Notes: generated from the sequence alone by a model not told the origin. DNA of 31,344 nt from Thermoplasmata archaeon (GCA_050013635.1 JBEKEW010000003.1:1-31344), one strand, 5' to 3'. Shown: positions 596 through 31,344, counted from the stretch's first letter. Made by a program: numbers and translations.

Positions 596-698
596 AGCGG
601 GGTAGGGTAGTCAGGAAAGCGGTCGGCGGTGCCGGCCGTCCTGAAATCCCGACGGGCTCATAACCCGTAGATCCATGGTTCAAATCCATGCCCCGCTA
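596..698 (+). tRNA. Initiator tRNA-Met (CAT), intron-containing; CCA not encoded
   Basis: Acceptor stem AGCGGGG(596-602)/CCCCGCT(691-697) with A1-U72; anticodon stem ACGGG/CCCGT with three consecutive G-C pairs; loop CTCATAA; T-arm CATGG-TTCAAAT-CCATG; discriminator A698. Removing 618-645 gives a 75-nt cloverleaf. Confidence 0.95.
618..645 (+). other. Non-canonical tRNA intron (28 nt) in D-loop, about position 20a/21
   Basis: Central 4-bp helix CAGG(612-615)/CCTG(640-643), two 3-nt AAA bulges (616-618, 644-646), intron hairpin GCGGTCGGC(619-627)/GCCGGCCGT(631-639). Confidence 0.87.
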
Positions 699-730
699 CT
701 CTCGGTAGACCCGGGGACTCCCGACTTGGG

Positions 731-1243
731 ACGGAGACCTACGTAGAGCTTCCAGCGTTCCCAGTCCTTCGGGTCAAGGCCGACATGAACGGTGGCGGAC
801 CGTTCCCCGCGTTCGCCCTCCTCGAGTCCAGGCTCCCTGCGCAGAAGGGTCGCAAGTTCTACGGTACTTTCCAATCCACCCCCGACGGAGAGGAGTACAA
901 CGCCTGCGTGGCCCGGATCGAGTCCGATGGCCCTGAAGGGATGCAGCTCCCGACGGGAGTTATCCCGGGGGGACGGTACGCCCGGCGCAAGCTGCCGGAT
1001 AGGGAGAGGAACCGGTCGTATCTTCCCAAGCTCTTCCAGGAGATGGCACCTACCCCGGACGTCGACCCGAGCCGCCCTTCGCCCGAAATCTACCGAAATG
1101 CCGCCGAGCCCCACCTCCTCGTGCCGGTGCGCAGCTCTCATGGGAAGGAGGAGCCGGATACCCCCACGGAAAGGACGAGCGTTCGCCAAAACCCGCGGAG
1201 CGCAATCACCATGTACGTTCCGGCTCCTGAAGGACAGCGATGA
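731..1243 (+). CDS. GyrI-like / AraC effector-binding small-molecule-binding domain protein (possible ACG start or decaying gene)
   Basis: Motifs ESRLP..KGRKFYG, EEYNACVA, GVIPGGRYARR, DPSRPSPEIYR resemble the GyrI-like fold. Frame is open and protein-like upstream of ATG785 back to ACG731 (ETYVELPAFPVLRVKAD). Confidence 0.6.
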   Translation, partial: TETYVELPAFPVLRVKADMNGGGPFPAFALLESRLPAQKGRKFYGTFQSTPDGEEYNACVARIESDGPEGMQLPTGVIPGGRYARRKLPDRERNRSYLPKLFQEMAPTPDVDPSRPSPEIYRNAAEPHLLVPVRSSHGKEEPDTPTERTSVRQNPRSAITMYVPAPEGQR

Positions 1244-1704
1244 CGGCGCCCGACATCCACGGTGTGACGGTTGCCACCGACGGCTCGCCGATCGCCCACG
1301 AGGCGGTCGAGTACGCGATCGACCTGTCGAAAAAGTATGGGGCGGTGCTGACGGTCCTTACGGTCGCTCCGCTGGTCCCCCTCTACGTCGCTTCCTCGGA
1401 GCCGTGGGTCCCCGCGACCGCTCCGGAGAGCGATCTCCCGTACTATCGCAAGTTCCTCAATCAAGTGGTGGACGAGGCGAAGGCGGTCGGTGTGAGCGCG
1501 ACGGGGGTCTGCCTCGAAGGGGTGGTCGCCGACGAGATCCTAGCCTACGTGGAGGCGAATCCCCCCGATCTGTTGGTCATCGGATCCCGAGGATTGTCCC
1601 GAGGGAAGCGGTTGCTGCTCGGCAGTGTCTCGACCGCGCTCCTGCACGCGGTGAAGTGCCCGGTGCTCGTCGTGCACCCGCGTTCTACGACGCCTTCGTC
1701 GTGA
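1240..1704 (+). CDS. Universal stress protein (UspA family)
   Basis: VATDGSPIAHEAVEYAIDL N-terminus and DLLVIGSRG...LLGSVS..LLHAVKCPVLVV C-terminus. Confidence 0.93.
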   Translation: MTAPDIHGVTVATDGSPIAHEAVEYAIDLSKKYGAVLTVLTVAPLVPLYVASSEPWVPATAPESDLPYYRKFLNQVVDEAKAVGVSATGVCLEGVVADEILAYVEANPPDLLVIGSRGLSRGKRLLLGSVSTALLHAVKCPVLVVHPRSTTPSS

Positions 1705-2191
1705 TCCGCAGGCGCGTCGGGCAGGGAAGCTTGTGCGATGCCTTGCGTAGCGCCTCCTTGGCGTCGGGAATGTGCGCCGTGGTCGTGTAGACCGAGATGA
1801 GCTCGACCCCGATCTGGGCGCGCACGGCGTGCCCGACGGCCTTGCCGAACGCGCCCCGCATGCCCGAGGAGATACGGTCCGCTCCCGCTCCCATCGCCAT
1901 CTTGTGCTCCCGGAGGATCTGGTGGGGGAACCGCCGCACCTTGAGATGGTACTCGTTCGGCGCGCCCTTCTCGAGGACCCGGACGGCGCTGATGCGGGCC
2001 GCCTCGAGAGCGATGTCCCGGACCTGAGCTGCCTCTTCGGTGCCGAGGGTGAGCTCGACGGGGAACTCCTGACGGAGGTTCCCCGTGTCGAACTGGGTGA
2101 CTCGGCAGACGGGAATGCCTCCCATGTACTCCTGCCGGGTGTAGACCTGACCCTCGACCTTGCGGTACATGCGGGCCGGTTTGCGCGTCAT
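1685..2191 (-). CDS. rpl10e: 50S ribosomal protein L10e/uL16
   Basis: RKPARMYR, YTRQEYMGGIP, ALEAARI, LREHKMAMGAGADRISSGMRGAFGK, AKEALRKASHKLP. Confidence 0.97.
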   Translation of the reverse strand: MTRKPARMYRKVEGQVYTRQEYMGGIPVCRVTQFDTGNLRQEFPVELTLGTEEAAQVRDIALEAARISAVRVLEKGAPNEYHLKVRRFPHQILREHKMAMGAGADRISSGMRGAFGKAVGHAVRAQIGVELISVYTTTAHIPDAKEALRKASHKLPCPTRLRITTKAS

Positions 2192-2216
2192 GGGCGCGGC
2201 CCAGACGGGGGTTCCG

Positions 2217-2222
2217 TTAAAA
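2217..2222 (-). promoter_or_regulatory. TATA box of rpl10e (overlaps pantoate kinase stop codon)
   Basis: TTTTAA on minus strand about 26 nt upstream of ATG 2191, consistent with a leaderless transcript. Confidence 0.55.
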
Positions 2223-3146
2223 TGGTTGCGTATGGCGGTCTCTCGGGAGTGCCGCCGGACCTAAGCGGTGCGCTCCCCGGATCGCAACCCGTACCTCCAC
2301 GGCCCGCAGCTGAAGGCGGCGGAGCCGGTCGACGATTCGGTTTCGCGCCGTCGAACTGCGCGGAGCCGCCAGAAAGCTCTCCCCGAACATCGCTTGGAAC
2401 GCCCAGGCGCCGTCGGTGCGCAGGAGCCGGAGCACGCGGTGGAGACGCGGGGAAGCGACGCCCATCCGATCGGTGAATCGCTCGCTCGCTCGGAGGAACC
2501 GCTCGGGGTCGGGGTGCGCGAGAAGGGCATCGACCCGCGAACCCCCCTCCCCGACCCGCCTCAGGAAGCGCGGATCCCGAAGCAGTCGGGGAGAGGGGAT
2601 CGGATTCCCCACGACCCCGACGAACACCGAACGCGTCCATGGGAGCCGCTCGACGTCTCCGAACGGCGGGATGCCGGGCCGCCGACGGAACTCCAAGCCG
2701 CCTCCGAGGATGGCGGCCACGCCCCCGAGCCCCCCGCCGCCGAAGAGATCGCAGAGGTGGGCGGTCTCGATCGCCTTCGCTCTCGGGCGGCCGAGGGCGT
2801 CCGCCACGGCGAGCGCGGTGGAGGTGGCGCCCGCCGCGCTCATCCCGAAGCCTTGGCCGAGGGGGAGATCGTGATGGAGGCGCACCGTGAGCGTTCCCCG
2901 CCGGCTCCCGAGGAGGCGTTGGGCGACGTCCGTGGAGATGGGGAGGGGTGCCCGCCCCTCGGCGGTGACATGAACGCGCCGCGTGGGCCCCGCTCGCCAG
3001 GATGCGGAGGCCCAGGCGCCGAGCTCGAGCACGACGCCCGCGCCGACGGAACCGCGCGATCGCGGGTCTCGGGTGCTCGCCGCGGGGGCAAAGAACCCGG
3101 TGACGTGGCCCGGAGCGAACGCGCGTGCGGTTCGGATTCCTCTCAT
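2217..3146 (-). CDS. pok: Pantoate kinase (archaeal GHMP kinase, CoA biosynthesis)
   Basis: AFAPGHVTGFF, GSVGAGV, GHMP loop PLGQGFGMSAA, GGGLGGV. Start set at ATG3146 (GTG3173 possible). Confidence 0.85.
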   Translation of the reverse strand: MRGIRTARAFAPGHVTGFFAPAASTRDPRSRGSVGAGVVLELGAWASASWRAGPTRRVHVTAEGRAPLPISTDVAQRLLGSRRGTLTVRLHHDLPLGQGFGMSAAGATSTALAVADALGRPRAKAIETAHLCDLFGGGGLGGVAAILGGGLEFRRRPGIPPFGDVERLPWTRSVFVGVVGNPIPSPRLLRDPRFLRRVGEGGSRVDALLAHPDPERFLRASERFTDRMGVASPRLHRVLRLLRTDGAWAFQAMFGESFLAAPRSSTARNRIVDRLRRLQLRAVEVRVAIRGAHRLGPAALPRDRHTQPF

Positions 3147-3183
3147 GTGGCGCAACCGATTCTCGATACGCACTGACGATTCC

Positions 3184-3190
3184 TTATAAA
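3184..3190. promoter_or_regulatory. TATA box in pok/pan divergent region
   Basis: TTATAAA reads as a TATA box on both strands between the divergent starts 3146 and 3248. Confidence 0.55.
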
Positions 3191-3247
3191 CCGAGGCGTC
3201 ATGCTAACGCCAGACGGGCCGAACGTTCGTCGCACTTTTTACGGGAC

Positions 3248-4453
3248 ATGAGCGAACCGGACTCCTCCGCACCCCCGCATGATGCGTTCGACCGAGTGAA
3301 CTTCCTCGAACTGAGGAACACCCAGCTCGCCGAGGCGATCAAACGCGTCGAGAGCGAACGGCACTACATGGAGTCGGAGATCCTCCGGCTCCAGCGGGAG
3401 GTCAAGCGGATGAAGACGGAGCTGGACCGGCTCCGATACCCTCCGCTCATCGTCGGCAGCGTGCGGGACGTTCTCACCGACGGCCGCGTGATCGTCAAGT
3501 CGTCGACCGGACCGGACTTCGTTGTCAACGCAGCGGAGACGGTCGAGCACACGAAGATGACGATCGGGAGCCGGGTCGCCCTCAACAAGCAGACCCTCGC
3601 GGTCATGGGGGTCCTACCGGCCTCCCTCGACCCGATCGTGACCGCGAGCGAGATCGTCGACAAGCCCAGCGTCACCTACGAGGATATCGGAGGACTCTCC
3701 GATCAGATCCGCGAGATCCGGGAAGCGGTGGAGTACCCGCTGCTGCGCTCGGAGCTGTACAAGCGAGTGGGCGTCGATCCCCCGAAGGGCGTGCTCCTGA
3801 TCGGATCCCCCGGCACGGGGAAGACGATGATCGCGAAAGCGGTCGCCCACCACACGAACGCGACGTTCGTTCGACTGGTCGGTAGCGAGCTCGTTCAGAA
3901 GTACATCGGGGAGGGGGCCCGTCTCGTGCGGGAGCTGTTCCAGATGGCCCGAGAGAAGGCCCCGACGATCATCTTCATCGACGAGGTCGACTCGATCGGG
4001 GCCAAGCGCCTCGAGGTCGCGACCAGCGGGGACCGCGAGGTCCAGCGCACCCTGATGCAGCTGCTGGCCGAGATGGACGGGTTCGAGCCGCTCTCGAACG
4101 TCAAGATCATCGCGGCGACCAACCGGCCGGACATCCTGGACGAAGCCCTCCTGCGGCCCGGCCGATTCGACCGGATCATCGAGGTGCCCATTCCCGCGGC
4201 CGGCGGGCGTGCCGAGATCTTCAAGATCCATTCGCGCCCGATGACGATGCACGAGCCGATCGATTTCGAGGTGCTCGCCGCCCGATGCGAGGGCGCCACC
4301 GGGGCCGACATCAAGGCGATTTGCACCGAGGCCGGGATGTGGGCGATCCGCGAAGAGCGGGACCAGGTGACCGCGGTCGACTTCGACCGGGCGATCGAGA
4401 AGGTCATCGGGGAAGAGGAACTCCGCAAGGAGTCCGTCACGATGTTCGCCTAA
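3248..4453 (+). CDS. pan: Proteasome-activating nucleotidase (AAA+)
   Basis: N-terminal coiled coil, OB domain (PPLIVG), Walker A GSPGTGKT, ELVQKYIGEGAR, Walker B IIFIDE, LLRPGRFDR, C-terminal MFA. Start moved to ATG3248 (401 aa). Confidence 0.97.
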   Translation: MSEPDSSAPPHDAFDRVNFLELRNTQLAEAIKRVESERHYMESEILRLQREVKRMKTELDRLRYPPLIVGSVRDVLTDGRVIVKSSTGPDFVVNAAETVEHTKMTIGSRVALNKQTLAVMGVLPASLDPIVTASEIVDKPSVTYEDIGGLSDQIREIREAVEYPLLRSELYKRVGVDPPKGVLLIGSPGTGKTMIAKAVAHHTNATFVRLVGSELVQKYIGEGARLVRELFQMAREKAPTIIFIDEVDSIGAKRLEVATSGDREVQRTLMQLLAEMDGFEPLSNVKIIAATNRPDILDEALLRPGRFDRIIEVPIPAAGGRAEIFKIHSRPMTMHEPIDFEVLAARCEGATGADIKAICTEAGMWAIREERDQVTAVDFDRAIEKVIGEEELRKESVTMFA

Positions 4454-5487
4454 GGGCGGACCGACGATCGGATCTCCGACTCCGCCGGCGCGGGTTCTAG
4501 GGCGGTCCGTCCTGGAGCGCGACCCGGGCCGCGATCCGCGGACCGGTGGTCGTCGAGAGGTCGAGCACGTAGGGCCGCGATCCGCGGACCGGTGGTCGTC
4601 GAGAGGTCGAGCACGTATCCCGGCTGTCCGGGGCGGAAGACGACCGGCCGGTCGGCGGTGAACCGGACGCTCTGTGCATCGCGCGGCCCGACCGATACCG
4701 GGACGACCTGCAGCCCGATGGCGAGATGCATCTGGGCCCCCTCGCCCCACGCGGACCGGTGGTATCGGCACGGGAAGAGCGCGGACCCGTTCAACGAGGC
4801 GGACGCGTGCAGCGCCCCTTCCGGAGCGAGGATCTGCCCGCGCGCGAGCTCGTCGGGATCGACCCCCTTCAGCGCGACGCCGACCCGATCGCCGTTCGAT
4901 GCGTGGGTGACCTCCACGTCGTGGACCTGGATCGACCGGATCTCGACGATCTTCGGGGTCGGCCACAGTCGGAGCTTGTCATGCGCATGGAGCGTCCCCG
5001 CCCGTACCACGCCCAGGGCGACCGCCCCGACCCCCTTGACCGGGAACGCGTGATCGATCGGAACCGTGACCGGGCCGTCGCCCGGGCGGGGAAGCCAGGC
5101 ATCGACGAGCTGGCGGAGCGCGGGGTAGTCGAGCGGTTGCTCCGGCGCCGTCTCGAGCCGGGTCCCCTTGAGGAGGCGGGCGACCTCCTCCGCGCCCACG
5201 CTCGGGCCCAACACGATCGTCGTCGGGACGTCGTAGAGGTCGGCCACGGCGATCGTCTCGGCGATCGGACGCGAGAGTTGATCGATCACCAATAGGCAGC
5301 GGTCGGCCATCCCGAGGGCGATGAGGAGCGGAGGGAGCTTTTCGGGAAAGTTGGTCGGTTCCACGCACGTGATCGCGTGACCTTCGGTCACGAGGTTGTA
5401 CAGCGTGACGTCCGATCCCGTCCCCTTCTTCCCGAACTCCTTCGCGACGTCTCGGGCCCCGATGGTCGCGATCGTGACCGCCGGCAT
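4450..5487 (-). CDS. Archaeal SelB-like elongation-factor family protein (aSelBL), degenerate G-domain; C-terminus altered by a tandem duplication
   Basis: Start ATG5487 with GGAGGT RBS (5491-5496). N-terminal EFGKKGTGSDVTLY without a canonical GTPase P-loop; EF-Tu domain II motifs IDHAFPVKGVGAVALGVV, IRSIQVHD, GDRVGVALKG, RGQIL. Confidence 0.85.
   Translation of the reverse strand: MPAVTIATIGARDVAKEFGKKGTGSDVTLYNLVTEGHAITCVEPTNFPEKLPPLLIALGMADRCLLVIDQLSRPIAETIAVADLYDVPTTIVLGPSVGAEEVARLLKGTRLETAPEQPLDYPALRQLVDAWLPRPGDGPVTVPIDHAFPVKGVGAVALGVVRAGTLHAHDKLRLWPTPKIVEIRSIQVHDVEVTHASNGDRVGVALKGVDPDELARGQILAPEGALHASASLNGSALFPCRYHRSAWGEGAQMHLAIGLQVVPVSVGPRDAQSVRFTADRPVVFRPGQPGYVLDLSTTTGPRIAALRARPLDDHRSADRGPGRAPGRTALEPAPAESEIRSSVRP
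4526..4617. repeat. Perfect 2 x 46-bp tandem duplication
   Basis: GGGCCGCGATCCGCGGACCGGTGGTCGTCGAGAGGTCGAGCACGTA at 4526-4571 and 4572-4617. Confidence 0.97.
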
Positions 5488-5495
5488 GGAACCTC

Positions 5496-8102
<2,607 letters not shown>

Positions 8103-8128
8103 CGGAGCCCGTACATCTCTGCGAGCCG

Positions 8129-8135
8129 ATTTAAG
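8129..8135. promoter_or_regulatory. Probable bidirectional TATA box for clpB and pyrD
   Basis: ATTTAAG (CTTAAAT on minus) is the only AT-rich element in the 55-nt gap; about 23 nt before pyrD GTG and 27 nt before clpB ATG. Confidence 0.55.
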
Positions 8136-8157
8136 CGCAGCACTAGTCCCCTGGGGC

Positions 8158-9078
8158 GTGGCCGATCTTGCCGTGAGCTGTGCCGGGGTTGCGCTGCGCA
8201 ATCCGCTGCTGCTCGCCTCGGGGATCTGGGGAGAGAGCGGGGAGTCCCTCACGAGCGCGTGGGAGGCGGGCGCCGGTGGCGTGATCACGAAGTCGATCGG
8301 TTCGCGGCCGCGTCCGGGATACCCCAACCCGACGATCGAAAGCTACGACCGGTGGGGGATGCTCAACGCGATGGGACTCCCCAACCCCGGGATCGAGGAA
8401 TACCCTCAGGAGATCGCGATCGCCCTCCGGGCGGGCGCGACCGTGATCGGTTCGGTGTTCGGAGGAGATGCGGAGGAGTTCGCGAGCCTCGCCGCCGCGA
8501 TGGCAAAGACCGGCGTGTCGGCGGTCGAGCTGAACTTGAGCTGTCCCCATGCCAAGGGGTACGGTAGCGAGATCGGGAGCGACCCCGCCCGGGTCGAAGA
8601 GGTCGTCCGCGCGGTGACGCGCGCCGTGCGGATCCCCGTCATCGCCAAGCTCACGCCCAACACACCGGATCCGGCGGTGCTCGCCCTGGCGGCCGAGCGT
8701 GGCGGGGCCGCCGCCATCAGTGCGATCAACACCTTGCGCGCGATGGCGATCGACGTGGAGCTGCGGCGGCCGGTCCTCTCCCATCGCCTCGGGGGTCTCA
8801 GCGGGCCGGCCATCAAGCCCGTCGGGCTCGCGTGCGTCTGGCAGATCCACGAGCACGTGGGCATCCCGATCATCGGGGTCGGCGGTATCTCCTCCGGCCG
8901 GGACGTGGTCGAGTATCTCATGGCCGGCGCGAGCGCGGTCGAGATCGGCACGCAGATCGCCTTCGAAGGGATCGGGGTCTTCGAGCGGGTCGGTCGCGAG
9001 CTCTCCGAGTTGCTCGATACGCTAGGGTTCGCACGGGCACGCGACGCGACCGGCGCCGCCCACGTTCCGGCCGCCTGA
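8158..9078 (+). CDS. pyrD: Dihydroorotate dehydrogenase family 1B, catalytic subunit
   Basis: [63 protein letters not shown]. Start GTG8158. Confidence 0.95.
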
Positions 9079-9124
9079 GCTCCGGGCCGTCGTCGAGGGA
9101 GCAGGGATCGTGCGCCACCGAGGG

Positions 9125-10033: not shown

Positions 10034-11668
10034 GTGAAGGTTCTGGTGGTCAGCGGGGGCGTGATTTCGGGCCTCGGCAAGGGCATCACGACCTCGTCGC
10101 TCGGCCGTCTCCTGAAGGCGCGGGGGATCCCCGTCACGATTCTCAAGATCGATCCCTATCTCAACGTCGACGCGGGAACGATGAACCCGTACCAGCACGG
10201 CGAGGTGTTCGTGCTGGACGACGGTACCGAAGCGGACCTCGATCTCGGCAACTACGAACGGTTCCTGGGGCAGAGCCTCTCCGGGACCCACAATCTGACG
10301 ACCGGGAAGATCTACCGTTCCGTCATCGAGAAGGAGCGTCGCGGCGACTACCTCGGCAACACCGTGCAGATCATTCCGCACGTCACGGGGGAGATCAAGC
10401 GGATGATCCGAGAGGTGGCGCAGTCGGCCGGCGCGGAAGTGATCCTGGTCGAGGTCGGGGGCACCGTCGGCGACATCGAGTCGATGCCGTTCCTCGAGGC
10501 GCTGCGCGAGCTTTCCTACGAGCTCGGAGATGGCCACATGGCGTTCGTCCACACCACGCTCGTGCCGGTGGTGGGGCCGGTCGGCGAGGCGAAGACGAAG
10601 CCGACGCAACACTCCGTGCGGGAGCTGCGCGCGATCGGGATCCGCCCGAACTTGATCGTCGCCCGGGGCCCGTTGCCGCTCACGGCGGATATCAAGGCCA
10701 AGATCTCCCTATTCTGCGACGTCCCTCCCGAGGCCGTCATCTCGGTGCCGGACCAGTCGACCGTCTACGAGGTCCCCCTCGTGCTCGAGGCCCAAGGCGT
10801 CGGCCCGCTCCTCGAGCGGCTGCTCGGTCTGCCCGAGCGCCGACCCGACTACACCGCCTGGAAGCAGTTCCTCGATACCTACCGGCGGGCGGAGGGTTCC
10901 ATCGAGATCGCGGTGGTGGGCAAGTACACCGAGTTGCGGGACGCCTACCTGTCGCACTCGGAGGCGTTCCACCACTGCCAGGGCCACCTCGGATGCGAAA
11001 TCCGCCTGCAATGGTACGACGCCGAGGACATCGCGAAGAACCCCTCCCTCCTCAGCCGGCTCGAGCAGTCGGACGGGGTCCTCGTCCCGGGCGGGTTCGG
11101 TGCCCGGGGCGTCGAGGGAAAGGTCCTCGCGATCGAGCGGGCGCGCCTCCGGCGCATCCCGTACCTCGGGGTCTGCTACGGCTTCCAGATGGCCGCCGTG
11201 GAGTTCGCGCGCAATGTCCTCTCCCTTCGGGGCGCCAATACGACCGAGGTCGATGCCGAGACGCCCGACCCGGTCGTCTGCCTTCTCGAACAGCAGAAGG
11301 GGATCGCGGAGATGGGGGGCACGATGCGCCTCGGAACGCAGCGCGTGGTGCTCACCGCGGGGTCGAAGATCGCCCAGTACTACGGCGTCACCGAGATCTG
11401 GGAGCGGCACCGGCACCGGTACGAGATCAACCCGACGTACCTCGACCGCTTCCAATCCCACGGCTTGAGCGTCACGGGGCGGGCGGTGGACGGCCGCGTC
11501 GAGTCGTTCGAGCTCGCCGACCATCCGTTCTTCATCGGGGTGCAGTTTCATCCGGAGTTCCTCTCCCGGCCGGAGGCCCCCCATCCCCTGTACCTGGCGC
11601 TGGTGCGGGCCGCCCTGGCCCGCAAGGAGGTGCCGACCCCTGCCGCCGCCACGCCGATCGTCCCGTGA
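10034..11668 (+). CDS. pyrG: CTP synthase
   Basis: VVSGGVISGLGKG, KIDPYLNVDAGTMNPYQHGEVFV, KTKPTQHSV, glutaminase GVCYGFQ, ERHRHRYE, QFHPEF. Confidence 0.98.
   Translation: MKVLVVSGGVISGLGKGITTSSLGRLLKARGIPVTILKIDPYLNVDAGTMNPYQHGEVFVLDDGTEADLDLGNYERFLGQSLSGTHNLTTGKIYRSVIEKERRGDYLGNTVQIIPHVTGEIKRMIREVAQSAGAEVILVEVGGTVGDIESMPFLEALRELSYELGDGHMAFVHTTLVPVVGPVGEAKTKPTQHSVRELRAIGIRPNLIVARGPLPLTADIKAKISLFCDVPPEAVISVPDQSTVYEVPLVLEAQGVGPLLERLLGLPERRPDYTAWKQFLDTYRRAEGSIEIAVVGKYTELRDAYLSHSEAFHHCQGHLGCEIRLQWYDAEDIAKNPSLLSRLEQSDGVLVPGGFGARGVEGKVLAIERARLRRIPYLGVCYGFQMAAVEFARNVLSLRGANTTEVDAETPDPVVCLLEQQKGIAEMGGTMRLGTQRVVLTAGSKIAQYYGVTEIWERHRHRYEINPTYLDRFQSHGLSVTGRAVDGRVESFELADHPFFIGVQFHPEFLSRPEAPHPLYLALVRAALARKEVPTPAAATPIVP
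11624..11631 (+). promoter_or_regulatory. Shine-Dalgarno for aspS, inside pyrG 3' end
   Basis: AAGGAGGT ending 8 nt before in-frame CTG11640. Confidence 0.65.
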
Positions 11669-12950
11669 GCTGCGCGAGCTGGACGGCGCCACCGTCCGGA
11701 TCGCCGGCCACCTCGAAGAGTACCGCGCGCTCGGAGGCGTAGCGTTCGCCCTCGTGCGGGACCGCTCGGGCACGACCCAGGTCACCCTCAAAAAGGGTCG
11801 GGCCGACCCCGCGCTGTTCACGCTGCTCGCGGAGCTGCCCCGCGAATCGATCGTCGAGGTCGAAGGAACGGTCCATCGCTCGGAGCGAGCGAACCGCGGG
11901 ATCGAGATCCACCCGGAGCGGGTGGGGGTCATCTCGCGGGCGGCGGTCCCGCTGCCGTTGGGCGTCGTGGACAAGGTCCCCGCCGAACTCGATACCCGCC
12001 TCAACCATCGGGTCCTCGATCTCCGCAAGCCGACGGTGCGGGCGATCTTCGAGCTGCGGGCCGCCCTGCTGCGCGGGTTCCGGCACGCCTTCACCGAACG
12101 GGGATTCTTGGAGGTCGAAACCCCCAAGCTGCTGCGCCAAGGGGCCGAAGGGGGCGCGACGCTCTTTCCCGTGCAGTACTTCGAAGGGCGCGCGTACCTC
12201 GCCCAGAGCCCCCAGCTGTACAAGCAGATGCTGATCGGCGCCGGGTTCGAACGTGTGTTCGAGATCGCACCGGCGTTCCGGGCCGAACCGTCCGACACCG
12301 TACGCCACATCACCGAGTTTACGAGCCTCGATGCCGAGATGGGATACATCGACGGGCCGGAGGACGTGCGCGCCGCCTTGGAGGGCGTGGTCGCCGACGC
12401 GATCCGGACCAGCCGAGAACAGCTCCTCCGCGCGGAGAACCCCCTCGCGGCCGGGTTGCCCGAAATCGTGCTCCCCTTCCCCCGCATACCCTTCGCGACT
12501 GCGGCGGAATGGCTGAACCGTTCCGACCTCGACCACGACTTCGGTACCGAGGAGGAGCGCGCGATCGGAGAGATCGCCGTGGAGAGGTTCGGGAACCCGC
12601 TCTATTTCCTGATCGATTACCCGGCCGCGATCAAGGCCCAGACCTTCTACGTCGGGCGACGGGACGACGTTCCCCGCCTCACCGGCTACTTCGACCTCGA
12701 TTACCGCGGGCTCGAGATCGCGAGCGGAGGTCCCCGCGAACATCGCCTCGATCGGCTCGAAGCGCAGATCCGCGAGGCCGGTTTCGATCCGGCGTCCTTC
12801 GCGGGGTACCTGGAAGCGTTCCGATACGGCATGCCGCCGCACGGCGGCTGGGGGCTCGGGATCGACCGCCTCGTCCAGGCGCTGGCGCGCCTCCCGAACA
12901 TCCGGGAGGCTCGCTTATTCCCCCGCGACCGCTACCGTCTCGAACCGTGA
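11640..12950 (+). CDS. aspS: Archaeal-type aspartyl-tRNA synthetase; inferred CTG start (436 aa)
   Basis: YLAQSPQLYKQM, FEIAPAFRAE, RHITEFTSLDAEM, GLEIASGG.REH, GMPPHGGWGLGIDRL, LFPRD. OB-fold strands LDGATVRIAGHLEEYRALGGVAFALVRDRSG lie upstream of the track's GTG11754. Identity confident; exact start inferred. Confidence 0.93.
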   Translation: MPPPRRSSRELRELDGATVRIAGHLEEYRALGGVAFALVRDRSGTTQVTLKKGRADPALFTLLAELPRESIVEVEGTVHRSERANRGIEIHPERVGVISRAAVPLPLGVVDKVPAELDTRLNHRVLDLRKPTVRAIFELRAALLRGFRHAFTERGFLEVETPKLLRQGAEGGATLFPVQYFEGRAYLAQSPQLYKQMLIGAGFERVFEIAPAFRAEPSDTVRHITEFTSLDAEMGYIDGPEDVRAALEGVVADAIRTSREQLLRAENPLAAGLPEIVLPFPRIPFATAAEWLNRSDLDHDFGTEEERAIGEIAVERFGNPLYFLIDYPAAIKAQTFYVGRRDDVPRLTGYFDLDYRGLEIASGGPREHRLDRLEAQIREAGFDPASFAGYLEAFRYGMPPHGGWGLGIDRLVQALARLPNIREARLFPRDRYRLEP

Positions 12951-12963
12951 GGGGAAGCCATCG

Positions 12964-19897: not shown

Positions 19898-20764
19898 TTG
19901 GCCGACGCCACGCAAGAGCTCGAACGCAAGCGCATCGAATCGAATCAGCGGGCCGACGAGCACCGGGCGGCGCGAGATCGGCTCAACGCCGAGGCCCGCC
20001 AGATCGCGGACGAGCGGGGCCGCATCCTGGACGAACTCCACGCGAAGAGCGCGGAGGCCCAGGAGCACCGACGGCATCGGGACGAACTGAACGAGCAGGT
20101 CCGCGAGGAGAAAGCGCTCCGCGAGGAGTGGAACCACAAGCTCCAAGAGACCAGCGATCGGGTCCAGGAGCTCAAGCGCACCCGCCAGCCCCGTACGGGT
20201 GCCGTCCCGGTGTGGCGGATGAAGAAGGAGCTCAAGGAGCTCGAGTTCCGGCACATGACGACGGCGCTCACGAACGAGCAGGAGAAGCGCCTGATCGAAG
20301 AGATGAAGCATCTCGAGCAGGCGATCCGCGAGCAGGACGAACAGTTGCGGCGCGACCCCGAGGTCGAGCAGGCGCTCCAGGCGATGGCGGAGGCCCGGGT
20401 CGAGGCGGAGAAGCACCACGCGGCGGTCGGGCAGAACGCGGAGGCGGCCCAGCACGCGCACGAAGCGATGGTCCTCCTGTACGAATCGGTCGACGAGCTG
20501 CGTCGGAAGGCCGACGAGGTGCAGACCCACCTCATCGAGGTCAAGGCCCGGGCGGACGAGCTCCATCGCGCCCACATCACCGCGATCGAGGAGGTGCGGG
20601 ACCTCGAGAAGATGCTCTACGCGACCCGTGGAGGTCACGCGCCCGCCGAGTGGGGCGAGGAGACCGAACCTCCGAAGGAGGAGGACTTCCTCGCCCGACT
20701 GAAGAAGGGAGAGAAGGTCTCGACCGCGGACCTGCTCGAACTGCAGAAGACGGGCCGCGGCTAG
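19898..20764 (+). CDS. Archaeal long coiled-coil protein (COG1340-like)
   Basis: 288 aa almost wholly E/K/R/A heptad-rich; RD.LN...R repeats; LEFRHMT..LT.EQEKRLIEE motif; KLKKGEKLST-like ending (RLKKGEKVSTADLLELQ). Confidence 0.8.
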   Translation: MADATQELERKRIESNQRADEHRAARDRLNAEARQIADERGRILDELHAKSAEAQEHRRHRDELNEQVREEKALREEWNHKLQETSDRVQELKRTRQPRTGAVPVWRMKKELKELEFRHMTTALTNEQEKRLIEEMKHLEQAIREQDEQLRRDPEVEQALQAMAEARVEAEKHHAAVGQNAEAAQHAHEAMVLLYESVDELRRKADEVQTHLIEVKARADELHRAHITAIEEVRDLEKMLYATRGGHAPAEWGEETEPPKEEDFLARLKKGEKVSTADLLELQKTGRG

Positions 20765-20795: not shown

Positions 20796-21641
20796 CTACG
20801 GGACCGGTGCGATGGGGGTCGATGCCGCCGGCGTGAGCCGGGACCCGCGGCCCCCGACGATCCGCGCGACGTACCCGAACGCCGCGGCCGATAGGCGCAT
20901 CCAGGCCATCGCTCCCCGTTGCCGCTCGATCAGACGCCGCGGCTTGTAGCTCGACCACAACGACCCGTTCTTCTCGGTCAATTGCTTACGACCGTAGCCG
21001 TTCCAGAACGCTTGGTAGAGGAATCGAACGAACGTCGTCCGCATGTGGTGGTAGACGATCGCATCCGGGGCGTACCGGATGGCGACGCCGGTCCGAACGG
21101 CCCGCAGATTGAGATCGATGTCCTCGGCGGTGATGAAACGGGGGTCGAACCCGCCCAAACGATCGAACAGCACCCGCCGGTAGGCGAGGTTGCAGGAGGG
21201 GTAGGTCACATCGCTGCCCTTCAGGTAGAGCTCGATCCGCTCCAGGTCCCCGTAGTGAACGCGGCCGATCGGCTGCGTTCGGCCCGCGACGACATCGGAG
21301 TGGTGGAACTCCTCCCGCAGGACCGACAGCCAGGCCGGGTCCGCGGCGCAATCCCCGTCGATGAACGCCACGAACTCCCCCTGGGCTACGGCGACGCCGG
21401 CGTTGCGCCCCACCCCGCGCGAGCCGTACCGCTGGAAGGCGCGGAACCGATCCGGATAACGGCGCGCGTACTCCCCGGCGATCTCGAAGCTACGGTCCCG
21501 GCTCAGCGCGTCGACGAGGATGACCTCGTACGGCGGCTCCTGCCCGACCAGGCTTTCGAAGAGCTGCCGAAGGTTCGGTTCTTCGTTCCGGACCGTGATA
21601 ACGACCGATATCAGCGGACGCGAACGTGCATCACTTGCCAA
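20796..21641 (-). CDS. Glycosyltransferase family 2 (GT-A)
   Basis: ISVVITVRNEE, EVILVDALS.D, GRNAGV, FIDGDC, GGFDPRF..AEDIDL; TTG start overlapping the PRC-barrel stop by 11 nt. Confidence 0.9.
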   Translation of the reverse strand: MASDARSRPLISVVITVRNEEPNLRQLFESLVGQEPPYEVILVDALSRDRSFEIAGEYARRYPDRFRAFQRYGSRGVGRNAGVAVAQGEFVAFIDGDCAADPAWLSVLREEFHHSDVVAGRTQPIGRVHYGDLERIELYLKGSDVTYPSCNLAYRRVLFDRLGGFDPRFITAEDIDLNLRAVRTGVAIRYAPDAIVYHHMRTTFVRFLYQAFWNGYGRKQLTEKNGSLWSSYKPRRLIERQRGAMAWMRLSAAAFGYVARIVGGRGSRLTPAASTPIAPVP

Positions 21642-23305: not shown

Positions 23306-23330
23306 GGGATACCGAGGAGGTGGTTCGATC

Positions 23331-23528
23331 ATGACGATGATGATCCCGATCCGCTGCTTCACGTGCGGCACCGTCATCGGCCAGTTCTGGGACCCGTACC
23401 TCGACCGGACCGCGCGCGGCGAGAACGCGGGGGACGTCCTCGACGCGCTCGGGCTCGAGCGGTACTGCTGCCGTCGGATGCTCCTTACCCACGTCGACCT
23501 GCTCGACGAGGTCGGCCCGTACGGCTGA
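23331..23528 (+). CDS. rpoN: DNA-directed RNA polymerase subunit N (Rpo10)
   Basis: [30 protein letters not shown]; GGAGGT RBS upstream. Confidence 0.97.
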
Positions 23529-24312
23529 TCGACGCGGGGCTGCGGAGCGCCCCCCTCGGATCCCGTTCGATCGTGCCGTAGCGTACTATGACGCGAGCCG
23601 GGGGTTCCCGGCCGAGGTGAGCACGGCGCTCGGGACCGCGCTCGCGGCCGAGCTTGCGGGCCGGGCGACCCTCGAGGTCGGAGTCGGGACCGCGCGGATC
23701 GCAGCGCCCCTCGTGGAACGGGGTATCGCGCTGGTGGGCGTCGACCTCTCGCGCCCGATGCTGCGACGGGCCGTGGAGAAGGGCCTGCGGGCCGGTGTCG
23801 TCGCCGACGGGGCCCATCTGCCGTTCTGCGATCATGCGTTCGACGCGGCGATGACGGTGCACGTGACCCACCTCTTGGCCGATTGGCCCCACGTCCTGGG
23901 CGAGATCGCCCGGGTCACCCGCACCGAGTACCTCTCCGTCATCGAAGGGCCCACCCCTCGGCGCCGTGGACCTGCCTCCGAGTACTACCGCTCGCTCCAG
24001 GAGGAGGGGGTTCTCGCAGCACATCCCGGGCTGCACGAGTGGCGCCTCGCCGAGCAGCTCCCGCCGGACCGCTGGCGGCCGGTGATCGAGTACGACGATC
24101 GAACGAGCACGGAGGCCCTCTTCCACATCCTGGAACGCCGACAATGGTCGAACCAGTGGAAGGTCCCCGAGGGAGCGCACCGGAGGGCCCTCGAGGCCGC
24201 CCGGGCTCGGTTCCCGACCGATACCGAGATCGTGACCCCGACCCGGCTCCGCATCGCGATCTGGTCGGTCGCGCGGCTCGCAGCGCACGTCTCCCGGCAG
24301 ATCGCTCCGTAA
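23521..24312 (+). CDS. Class I SAM-dependent methyltransferase; start upstream of track GTG23617, ACG23521 inferred
   Basis: [37 protein letters not shown]. Family-like N-terminal [13 protein letters not shown] (23566-23604) precedes the first canonical start. Confidence 0.82.
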
Positions 24313-24357
24313 GCTCGGGGGAGCTTCATCGGCGGGCCACCCCAGGAGCGGGCGCGT

Positions 24358-27300: not shown

Positions 27301-27708
27301 GAGGTTGGAAGCGGAGAAGTAGCTGAACACGGGGCTCGGCGTCTGGGGGATCGCCGCGCACGGACTGCACCCGGAGAGGGTCAAGCTCGCCTGAGGAGCC
27401 ACCCACGCGCCCCACCAGCCCGGGGTGAGCCCGGGGGCGTTGGTGACGCTCGAGAACGTGAACTGACCGCTTCCACCGATGGTCGTGGCCGTGTAGGTCT
27501 GGTTCGTTGCCTGGGATACGAGGCTGACCGTTACCCCGGCGGGCACCGGGTTCGGCGCGCCCGTCGGCTGCTCCACGTACCCGTACAGGGTGTACGTTGT
27601 CGTAGTAGCTGCCGGGGCGGCGCTGACCGGCACGATGGCGGCCAAGAGCACGACCAGGACCAATCCCACCAAGGCGACCTGCGGCACGGCTCGATGCAAC
27701 GACTTCAC
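24358..27708 (-). CDS. Large membrane-anchored surface glycoprotein (S-layer/adhesin-like; PKD/Ig-like and CARDB-like domains)
   Basis: Sec-type signal peptide (VSA/AP), S/T/N/G-rich beta-strand composition, PKD-like FVWNFGDG and GANSTDP.NG....YTW, more than 35 N-x-S/T sequons by hand count, C-terminal TM helix followed by RRRARR basic tail. GTG start. Confidence 0.85.
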   Translation of the reverse strand: MKSLHRAVPQVALVGLVLVVLLAAIVPVSAAPAATTTTYTLYGYVEQPTGAPNPVPAGVTVSLVSQATNQTYTATTIGGSGQFTFSSVTNAPGLTPGWWGAWVAPQASLTLSGCSPCAAIPQTPSPVFSYFSASNLGSGGTATPVTITGVSILPYSSTLQGTVTYAGRTVVSTVQLLDPAYNGFVLGWNTTTSNGSYKLQAPEGTWVAETTVPGPTIHYNLTQVVINAPIQTVNISAQDYLISGFENVAGTSPAVHVGNGGNVTVYDPSNGYIYSGATPPGGFYSFGTYPADFVSGPQPFDVFLSPVGYSTAYYAQTVSANAPIYQNVAVNAISPPAVYTTVLNFSGVALGTQGSGTLAVSTTATLGANAVIPTFANASVGDLWSQLGLDWNHSVYFPASSLPTVATAIQSAGPFFPAVQAATSINGTAFNEASTNAFTYSSTCVAGSCGPTSTSTLTLNYAQSYGLSSTVRANNSQYTFAFNYRYPTQAQSFVYRVVLPQGYSLAAGTAAPANTQLSATGKGNTWTSFSLTSLSSGSGFGTATFSVVKFGGVTASVNASVSSFTFSQSNVLNESKGNYTVVVGLGQNVTFSALNSTYPSGTNGSFFVWNFGDGTPLNASTHPTTYHTYAVATTQTALTGTLTVTNSGGLVNTVAYHVWVVSAGLTKANISYNATGTQVRQTTAGTTYLYVNWSTTLQFNASGSSANVGFPAVPSVLSVASFKVTANQFQTIANFSVSQGARFLSNWSLAFLGNGLYLSNGIVGSIGVPFLGWQYNMTLTVWDGEGHAAAATLVILVVDQQKPLPAFQIQNAKGKPVPGSGVIEGANGTAQVQFNGANSTDPNNGSVVQYTWHVNNTANRTVNLWYNQSASVPPFTYPGAWTAWLYPQATPYTINLTTTDRAGNVAWTSQALTVSVNTTTRPIMAANNLNAPGSMTAGSSYTIWVNVTVGGGSKSVANNVQVAFYLLPPSGVGSPNFIVNAGSSSVQFYNYTNGIVNPTPWATGTIPSLPYGATVRAQISWTPGPVGNWILYANATASNEFPADYVNGPNLTSTPITVNQNPINLYIEYAIIAAVAVIIIVLLVFLFRRRARRANPKTGRSGLERGSKRDKGKDNA

Positions 27709-27764
27709 GACTCCCGTTTCTATCGTCCCCCTATCGGAGGACTCGGCGCCGAACCTAGTCGCTC

Positions 27765-27772
27765 TACATATA
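27765..27772 (-). promoter_or_regulatory. Probable TATA box of surface glycoprotein gene
   Basis: TATATGTA on minus strand about 57 nt upstream of GTG27708. Confidence 0.4.
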
Positions 27773-27828
27773 GCTTGCTCGCCAAAAGGTACCGTCCGCC
27801 GCCGGAGGGTCGCGGCACGAGGCGCTCT

Positions 27829-30054
27829 CTATCGGTAGATCGCCTGGCCCGGCTCTTCCTTCCGCCGGGGCGAGCGCTCCCGTAGGAGGTGCCGCGAGAA
27901 CTCCTCGTAGAAGCGCAGGCTCTCGGCGTCGCACGAGGGGTGCATCTGCCGCAGGGCCGCCTCGAAGTGGGCCATGCCGACCTTCGTCGCCTTGAGGTTC
28001 TCGCGGATCGCGCCGAGACCCGCCTCCCGGCAGAGCGCCGCCAGATCGCTCCCGACGAAGCCCTCCGTGCGGGCGGCGAGCTGGTCGAGGTCGACGTCGT
28101 GGGCGAGCGGCATCTTCCGCGTGTGCACCTTCAGGATCTCCAAGCGTCCGGCACTGTCCGGGGGTCCTACGTACAGAAGGTGGTCAAAGCGTCCCGTCCG
28201 CAAGAGCGCCTCGTCAATGATGTCCGGGCGGTTGGTCGCGGCGAGCACGAGCACGCGCTCGAGCGATTCGAGTCCGTCGATCGAGGTGAGCAGCTGGTTG
28301 ACGATCCGCTCCGTGACGCCGCTCGAGGTCTGCAACCCCCGTTTGGGAGCGATCGCATCGATCTCGTCGATGAAGACGATGGAGGGGGAGGCCTGACGGG
28401 CCTTCTTGAAGATCATCCGGATCGCCTTCTCACTCTCCCCGACCCACTTGCTCATCACTTCCGGGCCCTTCACCGAGATGAAGTTCGCCTGGCTCTCGGT
28501 GGCCGCGGCCTTCGCGAGGAGGGTCTTCCCGACGCCGGGCGGCCCGTAGAACAGGATCCCGCGGGACGGCTCGATCCCCATCTGCTCGAAGACCTGGGGG
28601 TTCTTGAACGGCAGCTCGACCGACTCCTCGAGGACGCGTCGGGCGGGTCCGAGCCCCCCCACCTCGTCCCAGTGCGTGGTGGGGATCTCGACCGTGACAT
28701 CCCGGAGGCTCGACGGCTCGATTTGCTTGAGGGCCTCCCGGAAGTCCTTGTCGGTGACCTTCATCCGTTCGAGCAGCGAGATCGGAATCGGCTGATCGAA
28801 GTCGATCTCGGGGAGGTACCGTCGCAGCGCTCGCATCGCCGCTTCGCGTGCGAGCGCGGCGAGGTCGGCACCGACGAACCCGTGCGACAACGCCGCGAGC
28901 TCGCGCAACATCCGCTCGCGCTCCCGCTCGCTCCCGTCGATCGGCATACCCCGGGTGTGGATCTGCAGGATCTCCAAACGACCCGCTTGCGTCGGAACTC
29001 CGATCTCGATCTCGCGATCGAACCGTCCCGGCCGGCGGAGCGCGGGATCGATCGCTTCTTCGCGGTTGGTCGCGGCGATGACGATGACGTTCCCCCTTCC
29101 CGAGAGCCCGTCCATGAGGGTGAGCAGCTGGGCCACGACGCGCCGCTCCACCTCGCCGACGACCTCATCGCGCCGCGGGGCGATCGAGTCGAGCTCGTCG
29201 ATGAAGATCACGCTCGGGGAGTTCTTCTCCGCCTCCTCGAACTTCTCGCGGAGCTCTTTCTCGCTCTCGCCGTAGTACTTGGAGATGATCTCGGGACCCT
29301 GGATCCCGATGAAGTGCGCCCCGGCCTCGTTGGCGACGGCCTTCGCGATCAGGGTCTTCCCGGTCCCCGGAGGTCCGTAGAGCAGCACCCCCTTGGGCGG
29401 GGTGATCGCGAGCCGGTCGAACAGCTCGGGATGCTTGAGGGGGAGCTCGATCATCTCCCGAACGCGGCCGAGCTTCTCCTTGAGGCCCCCGATGTCCTCG
29501 TAGGAGATCCGGGGCGCCGCGACCTCGGTCTCGCTGACCGTCTCCTCTTTGATCGTGATCAACGTCGACGGGGCGACCTGGACGATCCCCTTCGGCTGCG
29601 TCGAGACGACCATGAACGGCAACGAGCCCCCCATAAGGAAGACGCCGGGGATGACGAACACATCCCCGCGGACGAAGGGGCGACGAGCGAGCGCCTTCTG
29701 CACGAACGCGTCGAGGCCCGGACCGAGGTCCATGCGAGAGGAACCGGCGTAGATCGGTGCGATCGTGATCGCGTCGGCGAGCGGGCAGTCGATCCGCGTG
29801 ACCTGGACGCGGTCCCCGATGCTCACACCGGCGTTGCGGCGGACGACCGCCTCCACCCGGACGAGGCCTTTGCCTTCATCATCGGCGGGGCCCCGACCGA
29901 CGACGGCGGGCGTCGTCTTCCGCCCGCGGATCTCGACGATGTCGCCGACTCCAACCTTCAATCGCTGACGCGTCTGGTTGTCGAGCCGGGCCGCGCCGAG
30001 GCCTACGTCCTGCTGGGAGACTTCTGCAACCCGTAGGTGGGCACTCTCCCCCAT
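27829..30054 (-). CDS. cdc48: CDC48/VCP/VAT-family AAA+ ATPase (about 741 aa)
   Basis: Double-psi barrel N-domain, D1 [17 protein letters not shown]2 [27 protein letters not shown]-terminal IYR. Start ATG30054 (ATG30066 alternative); CTATTTAG TATA at 30083-30090. Confidence 0.97.
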
Positions 30055-30155
30055 CGGCGAGGTCATCCACGCGCGGGCCGCTCTAAATAGCTTCGGCCGG
30101 CCGGCACCCCCGCTGCCGGAAGGAAGATATGTCGCATTCCCCTCGAGGAGGGCGC

Positions 30156-31061
30156 ATGGTGGAGCGGGTGGGACCGGCTCCGGAGCTGCGTCGCCTGTTC
30201 GAAGCCGCCGGCTACCGGATCGAAGAGCGGTCCCAAGGATGGGTCGCGAGCCGAGCTCGGGATCGCCGGGCGGTGGTCGCCGCCGCCGCGTTGCACTCCC
30301 CGACCGATTTCGAACCGTGGTTCCCCACGGACTCGGTCCACCGGGTCCTGTACTACCCGGAAGATCCGGGCGAGGTCGCCCGACGCCTCGCTGCGGATCG
30401 GGGGATCGAGGTGCTCGACCCGACGACCCTGGGACCGGCGCTCGGCGAGTTGCTGCTAGGGCCGGTCCTCCCCGCCCACGAAGCCCGCGACCCGTCCAAC
30501 GGCCTCCCCCTCGTCCCACCGGCGCTCCTGATTCCCGAAGGCGCGTCGACCGTTCGCCCCCGGATCGGCCGAGAGGAGATCGAAGCCTTGGCCGGAGGGG
30601 TCGGCGTGCGTTACACCCTGCGACTCGTCCCGCACTACCTCGCCCCGTACCGGGTACGAACGCCTTCTCCCCACGGAGGTACGGGAGCCGTGTCGGATCA
30701 CTTGGTGGCCGTGAACGCGCTCGCCCGCCGCGCGGAGATCTGGGAGCCGCAGGACTACGAGCTGGTCGGCGACCTCCCCGGGCCGTACCAGCGCCTCCAA
30801 CCCGAGATCGGGGACGGGCAGGCAGTCGCCATCGCAATCCAGGCGATCCGACGCCATCACACGGTGAACGTCGACCACACCGAGCAGCACGGCGAAGCGA
30901 TCGTCATCGAGACCCGTCGCCTCCCCCCGGCACTGGACGATATCCAGCTCGGTCCCCGAGTCCTCGTGTACGTGCCGTACTGGTATGTGGAGGGGGACGA
31001 CGGGCGGATCGTGCTCGACGCGGTCACCGGTCGCCGCACCACCGAGGAGGAGCTCCCCTAG
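30156..31061 (+). CDS. Hypothetical protein: degenerate Mrr-like nuclease-fold N-domain plus two related C-terminal alpha/beta repeats
   Basis: Host-like codon bias, GGAGGG RBS before ATG30156 (ATG30129 alternative). LFEAAGY.IE and ARRLAADRGIEVLD...L..LL recall Mrr_cat edges; repeats P.IG...LVPHY...VNAL and P.IG...YVPYW...LDAVTG. Confidence 0.72.
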   Translation: MVERVGPAPELRRLFEAAGYRIEERSQGWVASRARDRRAVVAAAALHSPTDFEPWFPTDSVHRVLYYPEDPGEVARRLAADRGIEVLDPTTLGPALGELLLGPVLPAHEARDPSNGLPLVPPALLIPEGASTVRPRIGREEIEALAGGVGVRYTLRLVPHYLAPYRVRTPSPHGGTGAVSDHLVAVNALARRAEIWEPQDYELVGDLPGPYQRLQPEIGDGQAVAIAIQAIRRHHTVNVDHTEQHGEAIVIETRRLPPALDDIQLGPRVLVYVPYWYVEGDDGRIVLDAVTGRRTTEEELP

Positions 31062-31113
31062 GTGCCCCTCCCCCCCGCCGACCGTAAAATACGTTCCTAC
31101 CTTGCGTCGGTCC

Positions 31114-31344
31114 GTGATCCTCGAACAGCACCGGGTCGGACCGTATCTCAATTTCACCTATCTCGTGGCGAGCGGCGAGGGAGGCGACGGGGTCGTCATC
31201 GACCCCTCCTACGGCATCGAGCCGGTGCTCCACTCGATCGACGCGCATCGGGTCAAGGTACGGTACGTCCTCAATACCCACAGCCACGCCGATCACATCG
31301 CCGGAAACGGGGAGGTGCGCGAGCGAACGGGGGCCCAGGTCGTC
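31114..31344 (+). CDS. MBL-fold metallo-hydrolase (glyoxalase II-like), 5' part, runs off window
   Basis: Not in ORF track. From GTG31114: MILEQHRVGPYLNFTYLV...VVIDP...YVLNTHSHADHIAGN; HxHxDH motif; TAAAATA (31085-31091) upstream. Confidence 0.9.
   Translation, partial: MILEQHRVGPYLNFTYLVASGEGGDGVVIDPSYGIEPVLHSIDAHRVKVRYVLNTHSHADHIAGNGEVRERTGAQVV

Follow-up and report, generated by a model that had tools for sequence, protein, structure and literature searches.

The stretch of DNA analysed here, which we call the window, covers 31,344 nucleotides of a Thermoplasmata archaeon and corresponds to contig C3 of a metagenome-assembled genome (MAG) of 1.47 Mb, which is 83% complete and has a GC content of 68%. 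The window DNA is archaeal, likewise has 68% GC, and is also present in many peat metagenomes. It carries aspS, the gene for aspartyl-tRNA synthetase (AspRS), which is predicted to begin with CTG, and two further genes, for a class I methyltransferase and a GyrI-like protein, for which ACG is the candidate start codon. The relatives available for comparison are Thermoplasmata archaeon MAGs of peat, acidic soil, and wetland, with UBA184 and Candidatus Lutacidiplasma silvani among them. The MAG carrying the window is denoted G000, its relatives G002, G005, and G007, its family f1, and the sister families f2 and f3.

Gene calling from Pfam and from frames based on the GC content at third codon positions (GC3) gives about 30 genes in the window. 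These are the genes for the initiator tRNA-Met (tRNA-iMet), GyrI-like protein, Usp, L10e, GHMP kinase, PAN, an EF-Tu-domain-2 protein, and ClpB, followed by pyrD, pyrK, pyrG, aspS, MCM, DUF424, NMD3, SepF, M17 peptidase, and HerA, then by DUF7121, a GT2 glycosyltransferase, a PRC-barrel protein, L18e, L13, S9, RpoN, and the methyltransferase, and finally by a PKD-domain protein, CDC48, a hypothetical protein, and an MBL-fold protein. A recount of the start codons over these ~30 coding sequences gives ~18 ATG, 6 GTG, 2 TTG, 1 CTG, and 2 without a canonical start, which is close to the initial annotation of this DNA (31 coding sequences with 18 ATG, 7 GTG, 3 TTG, and 3 near-cognate starts). We can also confirm that the three genes named there, aspS, the methyltransferase gene, and the GyrI-like gene, have no canonical start at the point where the conserved N-terminus of each would need it.

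The aspS frame is open from position 11469, following a stop codon at 11466-11468, and its first ATG, GTG, or TTG is the GTG at 11754, which already lies 20 codons into the OB-fold domain that Pfam begins at nucleotide 11694. The CTG at 11640-11642 is found 8 nt after an AGGAGGT motif (11625-11631) and 29 nt within the end of pyrG, whose stop codon is at 11666-11668. Both the CTG and the AGGAGGT are unchanged in 18/18 relatives of the genus, with protein identities of 68-91%, and the N-terminal peptide L[S/P]xPRRxSRE is conserved in the genus relatives, while the overlying pyrG residues vary. The T of the CTG occupies a third-codon position of pyrG and is kept despite a genome GC3 of ~90%, which speaks for selection acting directly on this CTG.

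The start column of aspS in 80 species representatives contains CTG (64), ATG (10), or GTG (6) and no other codon. CTG is found in every deep clade of the AspRS tree, on which the start must have changed to ATG or GTG no fewer than 6-7 times. Among the other genera of family f1, two have CTG and one has ATG, and the start is ATG in the sister families f2 and f3. Because the column shows this conserved and interchanging pattern, base-call error, private mutation, and frameshift are excluded for aspS; the first two had been proposed in the initial annotation as what would overturn it, and the check in relatives, with CTG in 64 of the 80 species, removes them for this gene. On these comparative grounds, CTG 11640 bears the signature of a start codon and is the predicted start of aspS.

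For the remainder of G000, we built 1172 crude gene models by our own procedure. The high-confidence starts are 64% ATG, 30% GTG, and 5% TTG; GGAGG precedes only ~11% of them at 5-10 nt, and near -27 there is a weak signal rich in A/T. The sequence suggests that many mRNAs of this genome are leaderless. Coding-potential and Shine-Dalgarno screens point to three further candidates, truA, a major facilitator superfamily (MFS) transporter gene, and a MobA-like gene, which were checked in relatives, and for truA and the MFS gene there is no canonical start before the conserved N-terminal domain.

The truA gene starts with ACG in 15/24 genus genomes (ACG ACG CGC TGG...) and with ATG or GTG in the other 9, in the same or the adjacent column. 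An in-frame stop is located 2-11 codons upstream in four genomes, with no other candidate start between. A TATA-like CTTAG/CTCAAG element is found 22-25 nt upstream in genomes with ACG, ATG, and GTG alike, and since it sits there whatever the start codon, the truA mRNA is probably leaderless. The start column of the MFS gene holds CTG in 10 genomes, GTG in 6, and CTA in 1; this codon and the TGA that ends the preceding gene overlap (CTGA/GTGA), and two of the genomes carry a stop in the same frame 11 codons before it. With the aspS CTG in three genera of f1, the truA ACG, and the MFS CTG, the suspicion that near-cognate starts are real and conserved in the lineage is borne out. A membrane-protein gene of G007 is a related case, reading ACG ACG where G000 has ACG ATG, with no canonical start over 53 conserved codons.

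The G007 orthologs of genes g87, g920, g140, and g1036 (an XPD-like helicase, archease, and two others) contain 29-152 conserved codons without ATG, GTG, or TTG, and in the XPD-like gene the CTG of G007 aligns with a TTG of G000; from this alignment, these four are likely to be further near-cognate starts. Two other candidates are rejected. The CTG after AAGGAGG at C151:492 belongs to the C-terminus of an upstream epimerase gene, the true start being ATG, and the GHMP kinase gene of G007 has an upstream GTG.

The scale implied by the initial annotation, 3/31 or ~10% of genes, does not hold for the genome. We compared 857 ortholog pairs between G000 and a 2.3-Mb contig of G007 (74% identical), looking for protein-like, conserved, non-overlapped sequence at least five codons upstream of the first canonical start; in the final screen, codons overlapped by another gene were excluded and the 121 flagged pairs were triaged manually. 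Four genes of G000 pass, namely aspS, truA, the MFS gene, and the methyltransferase gene, and one broken SMC gene is flagged in addition. The reciprocal screen in G007 gives ~5 of 876, one of which is the membrane-protein gene described above. The 3/31 of the window is a local cluster and not the genome rate. The flagged SMC gene of G000 (C48:7453-7965) contains only the C-terminal part with the signature motif (LSGGEKS...), and aligns from residue 1067 of the intact G007 SMC; either a frameshift or a stop in the frame breaks the gene.

The first ortholog screen flagged 229/855 pairs, because upstream genes translated in the wrong frame also look conserved, and a mismatch-phase filter on the pairs was over-strict and dropped known cases. 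In a coding-potential scan, 58/1009 genes had signal eight codons or more ahead of the first canonical start; most of these were false, L10e, an LLM oxidoreductase, and DUF1697 among them. CTG at a spacing of 7 after GGAGG is seen 11 times against ~3 expected, but these are mostly internal codons or adjoin a canonical start, and the count is not used. A screen for interchange in the start column is noisy and convincing only for truA and the membrane-protein gene of G007.

The methyltransferase frame in the window has no ATG, GTG, or TTG from 23344 up to the GTG at 23617, and a motif of the family is encoded upstream of 23617. The homologues begin 6-8 codons before the residues FDR, with GTG or, in two of them, perhaps CTG. 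Between G000 and G005, the codons for RPPR differ solely at third positions, which indicates that the frame is translated upstream of 23617. The ACG at 23521 overlaps the rpoN stop as ACGGCTGA, and conservation of this start column is judged from 2 genomes. ACG 23521 is likely to be the start codon, as far as the alignment can tell.

The GyrI-like gene is assigned to its family below the Pfam threshold (Cass2 17 bits, GyrI-like 15 bits). Its ACG at 731-733 aligns with the ATG or GTG of 8/11 genus homologues, exactly in 5/11 and within 1-2 codons in the rest, and a start at ATG 785 would cost the first beta-strand. A contig of an independent peat metagenome, which covers 199-2055 with four differences and none of them at 731-733, has the same ACG. 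No Shine-Dalgarno sequence or promoter is evident before this ACG, which is 31 nt downstream of the tRNA. Both ACG initiation and a recently lost start are possible for this gene. Its paralogues in several genus genomes have a conserved CGTTTC[A/G]C[T/G]A[T/C]CTC-like element ~45-55 nt upstream of ATG, followed by CTTAG/CTTAA ~25-30 nt before the ATG, which judging from the sequence may be an operator plus a TATA box; both are absent from the window copy, which directly follows the tRNA.

The tRNA-iMet gene at 596-699, pointed out earlier as unusual and intron bearing, is real. It has the initiator features A1:U72, a GGG/CCC anticodon stem, and a CUCAUAA loop, reading AGCGGGG...CCCCGCUA and GGGCUCAUAACCC. 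The two other CAU tRNAs of the genome have G:C or U:A as the first pair and are without the GGG/CCC stem. The intron shows a bulge-helix-bulge (BHB) motif with AAA bulges at 616-618 and 644-646 around a 4-bp CAGG/CCUG helix, and once the 28 nt are excised, the tRNA is 76 nt long and its D-loop normal. In G007 the gene (C2:569210-569312) has identical exons and an intron of equal length with compensatory changes in the hairpin. By this structure, it is an ordinary BHB intron, and splicing is predicted. It compares well with archaeal BHB introns at noncanonical positions, sharing a 28-nt D-loop insert, two 3-nt bulges 4 bp apart, and hairpin covariation between two species, and differs in that the tRNA concerned is the initiator, here in a Thermoplasmata lineage. 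No tRNA was called in the window, as the gene is missed by the default mode of ARAGORN and by the Rfam gathering threshold; the Rfam tRNA model matches 628-692 only, at 24.5 bits and below threshold, and the intron mode of ARAGORN miscalls the gene as tRNA-Phe.

The proposed link between this intron and the choice of start codon finds no support: the anticodon stem-loop is canonical, and the assembly contains no initiator-like tRNA whose anticodon is CAG or CGU. A dedicated initiator tRNA reading CUG or ACG is rejected on the same search of the assembly. The features of the window discussed here are listed in Table 1.

Table 1. Coordinates of the tRNA, genes, and translation signals in the window
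Feature	Position	Strand	Remarks
Initiator tRNA-Met (CAU), intron bearing	596..699	+	Exons ~596-617 and 646-699; read directly from the sequence
tRNA intron, 28 nt, D-loop	618..645	+	Minimum free energy fold; exact ends ambiguous within flanking AAA repeats
GyrI-like/Cass2-like gene	731..1243	+	Probable ACG 731-733; first in-frame ATG 785
pyrG, CTP synthase	10034..11668	+	GTG start; Pfam CTP_synth_N begins at the GTG; ATG in the G007 column
aspS Shine-Dalgarno sequence AGGAGGTG	11625..11632	+	GGAGGT[C/G] or close variant at the same place in 80/80 species
aspS, aspartyl-tRNA synthetase	11640..12950	+	Predicted start CTG 11640-11642; 436 aa; OB domain from residue 19
DUF7121 gene	19898..20764	+	TTG start (canonical); TTG kept in G007
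Family-2 glycosyltransferase gene	20796..21641	-	TTG start (canonical); TTG kept in G007
rpoN, RNA polymerase subunit N	23332..23528	+	ATG start; GGAGGTG 8 nt upstream
GAGGT, Shine-Dalgarno-like motif	23508..23512	+	8 nt before ACG 23521
Class I S-adenosylmethionine methyltransferase gene	23521..24312	+	Candidate ACG 23521-23523; alternative ATC 23560

Two neighbouring genes of the window have ATG starts. The EF-Tu-domain-2 gene (4450-5486, minus strand) was considered as a near-cognate case and rejected, as it has an ATG at 5486 behind AGGAGGT. Its 3' end contains a perfect 46-bp tandem duplication (2.0 copies, 4526-4617), which is single copy in contigs from three independent peat metagenomes. 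The single-copy protein terminates in ...GPRIAARVALQDGPP*, and the duplication, either a mutation specific to the strain or an artefact of assembly, shifts the frame so that a long tail rich in Arg and Pro follows. The ClpB disaggregase (5496-8102, minus strand) adjoins PAN, is full length (Clp_N, two AAA modules, D2-small), and starts with the same ATG in G007.

Among the initiation factors, aIF1 is present in 28/31 genus genomes. In G000 it is encoded at C14:3513-3827, with a SUI1 domain (Pfam ID PF01253) at 3564-3770 that scores 58.3 bits against a cut-off of 25.5, and the gene starts with ATG. Loss of aIF1 and a noncanonical start of aIF1 itself are both rejected, the factor being present and its start being ATG. 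The SUI1 score of aIF1 is 52-62 bits in f1 and 74-90 bits in the other families, with one at 66, a drop of ~30%. The drop is 5-10% for aIF1A (61-68 against 70-77 bits), aIF2-beta (107-110 against 113-130 bits), and L7Ae (98-99.5 against 103.5-104 bits). The aIF1 of f1 is the most divergent in the class among the Thermoplasmata sampled.

The divergence includes loop 1, which reads EPRRYNKP in 15/15 f1 sequences (VEKRRYNKP in G177) and RRYGK in 32/33 other Thermoplasmata, so that the archaeal motif R-R-[Y/F]-G-K (R31, Y32, G33, and K34 in Pyrococcus abyssi) is not found in f1. In P. abyssi, loop 1 binds the 30S subunit and the mRNA through R31, Y32, and K34, which stabilise the 30S:mRNA complex (PMC6237735), and the Gly-to-Asn change of f1 falls between the positions of Y32 and K34. 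The zinc knuckle CxxCGLPxxxCxC is absent from f1 aIF1 and present in 31/33 other sampled genomes, and a basic C-terminal tail (LPKRGRRG) is found on most f1 aIF1 sequences, in two of the three genera.

We consider it probable, from the comparison of genomes, that ordinary Met-tRNAi initiates a small set of genes at CUG and ACG in the UBA184/Lutacidiplasma lineage of soil and peat Thermoplasmata. Roughly 0.5-1% of genes would start in this way. For aspS, the AGGAGGT inside the end of pyrG would position the 30S subunit at a distance of 8 nt from CUG 11640, and initiation there would yield the 436-aa enzyme. For the MFS gene (CTGA) and the methyltransferase gene (ACGGCTGA after rpoN), the start would be fixed by the overlap of stop and start codon, and for truA by the 5' end of an apparently leaderless mRNA. 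The signals seen in the sequence are the Shine-Dalgarno motif of aspS, the GAGGT of the methyltransferase gene, the CTGA overlap of the MFS gene, and the upstream element of truA, with none found for the GyrI-like gene. The earlier suggestion of termination-reinitiation thus suits aspS, the methyltransferase gene, and the MFS gene and does not suit truA, which looks leaderless. We infer both initiation at these codons and methionine as the first residue.

The codons themselves probably arose by GC-biased mutation, TTG to CTG and ATG to ACG both being T-to-C changes, and would persist as the lineage tolerates them, with repeated swaps back to ATG or GTG. Because these reversions are repeated, the alignments suggest that the near-cognate starts drift near-neutrally. 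The remodelled aIF1 of the family would be a possible source of the tolerance, and the sequence makes it a plausible cause. The full version of this idea is more tentative, and we would sooner bet against it than for it: that a soil Thermoplasmata family lowered its start stringency via aIF1 (Gly33 to Asn, loss of the knuckle, basic tail), making CUG and ACG true starts of essential genes, including the 5'-terminal ACG of leaderless mRNAs.

A number of observations weigh against these proposals. The RNA contigs that match aspS, from one metatranscriptome run that contains a small share of this DNA, cover 12682-12923, outside its start, and none of the RNA contigs reaches 11640, 731, or 23521. 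The CTG of the MobA-like gene is ambiguous, with a conserved GTG six codons downstream. The ACG of the methyltransferase gene is conserved in G005 but lies within constrained rpoN codons, and this single close ortholog has an in-frame TTG six codons upstream of the ACG. The GyrI-like homologues in the genus are only ~50% identical, the closest relatives G002 and G005 are without the gene, and its GC3 of 0.78 is below the genome level. Leaderless initiation depends strongly on codon-anticodon pairing, and a 5'-terminal ACG would thus be unusual (PMC4705826). The near-cognate rate of roughly 0.5% of genes (4/857 pairs), a lower bound, depends on crude gene models and on the manual triage of 121 pairs and derives from G000 and G007, so that it does not show initiation here to be more relaxed than in other archaea. 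As for aIF1, the zinc knuckle occurs in 64% of archaeal aIF1 and is absent in ~36% (PMC6237735), and the outgroup genome G022 is also without the loop-1 Gly. The association of aIF1 with near-cognate starts is a single lineage-level co-occurrence and a correlation only; the altered aIF1 suspected earlier is found (RRYNK, no zinc knuckle, 52-62 bits), and its causal role stays correlative.

Near-cognate starts at such a frequency might also be ordinary for archaea and hidden from gene callers, with nothing special about the lineage or its aIF1. We regard this as a real possibility, if not the one we would expect. Ribosome profiling of Haloferax volcanii with harringtonine gave ~30% near-cognate codons among the putative alternative initiation sites, which were set aside (PMC7261190), and the conserved ATC (dnaA) and CTG (rpsL) starts in Deinococcus (PMC2830850) point in the same direction. 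Against it, aspS begins with ATG in f2 and f3 together with a canonical aIF1, and the drop in aIF1 score is confined to f1.

The near-cognate codons could instead be private mutations, base-call errors, or signs of decaying genes, which are either untranslated or truncated from a downstream canonical start. The properties of the GyrI-like gene named above, with ACG set against the ATG of distant homologues, and the TTG of the methyltransferase ortholog, lost in G000 by a single T-to-C change, would fit this explanation. It is impossible for aspS (64/80 CTG), truA (15/24 ACG), and the MFS gene, the ACG of the GyrI-like gene is reproduced in an independent metagenome, and the synonymous differences in the RPPR codons of G000 and G005 argue against it for the methyltransferase. 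Decay or private mutation is possible only for these two ACG genes of the window, and as a general account it is unlikely. C-to-U editing of the mRNA, restoring canonical starts (CUG to UUG, ACG to AUG) as in plant organelles, where ACG starts are edited, is highly improbable: a single C-to-U change would turn either codon type into a canonical start and no ATC, ATT, or ATA case is established, which would be in line with editing, but GC-biased mutation also predicts CUG and ACG, so that the pattern does not need it, and mRNA editing is not known from archaea.

If ordinary Met-tRNAi indeed initiates at these codons, an essential aminoacyl-tRNA synthetase begins with CUG in dozens of species, and truA has an ACG that alternates with ATG and GTG. 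Gene callers assume AUG, GUG, or UUG starts. In these archaea, which are abundant in soil and peat, automatic annotation would truncate AspRS, TruA, and others, as foreseen in the initial annotation, or call them pseudogenes, and would distort estimates of completeness and metabolism. The natural aIF1 variant and the start pattern together offer a testable handle on how loop 1 of e/aIF1 sets initiation fidelity, and near-cognate starts may be general and overlooked in uncultured archaea. The start codons of archaea are usually listed as AUG, GUG, and UUG (PMC4705826). What appears to be new here, from the genome sequences, are conserved CUG and ACG primary starts in a Thermoplasmata family and a candidate correlate at the level of an initiation factor.

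Near-cognate initiation is familiar from other systems. In eukaryotes and their viruses, Met-tRNAi initiates at CUG and ACG under the policing of eIF1, and changes in eIF1 raise non-AUG initiation. The two codons are the same, being the most efficient near-cognates there, and the factors aIF1/eIF1, aIF1A, and aIF2 are homologous. In the archaea described here, by contrast, there is no scanning or Kozak context, and positioning would be by a Shine-Dalgarno sequence, a stop/start overlap, or probably a leaderless 5' end; the near-cognate codons are predicted to be the sole starts of the main protein and not those of alternative isoforms.

The infC and pcnB genes of E. coli have autoregulatory near-cognate AUU starts. 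They share with our cases a conserved noncanonical start on a translation-related gene, whereas nothing in the sequence points to a regulatory role of the start codon in aspS, truA, or the MFS gene, where the codon swaps freely with ATG or GTG, like tolerated drift, and the aIF1 of this family has an ATG start. The closest documented parallel, by analogy, is the pair of conserved starts in housekeeping genes of Deinococcus-Thermus, ATC in dnaA and CTG in rpsL, for which N-terminal proteomics provided the proof (Baudet et al. 2010, PMC2830850). Both systems combine a high GC content and many leaderless mRNAs, predicted in our case, with a clade-wide CTG on an essential gene whose start is truncated or misplaced by annotation. 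The differences are that those bacteria have IF3 as their fidelity factor, whereas the host here is an archaeon with eukaryote-type factors, that ACG is used as well according to our reading, and that the archaeal starts are predicted from the sequence.

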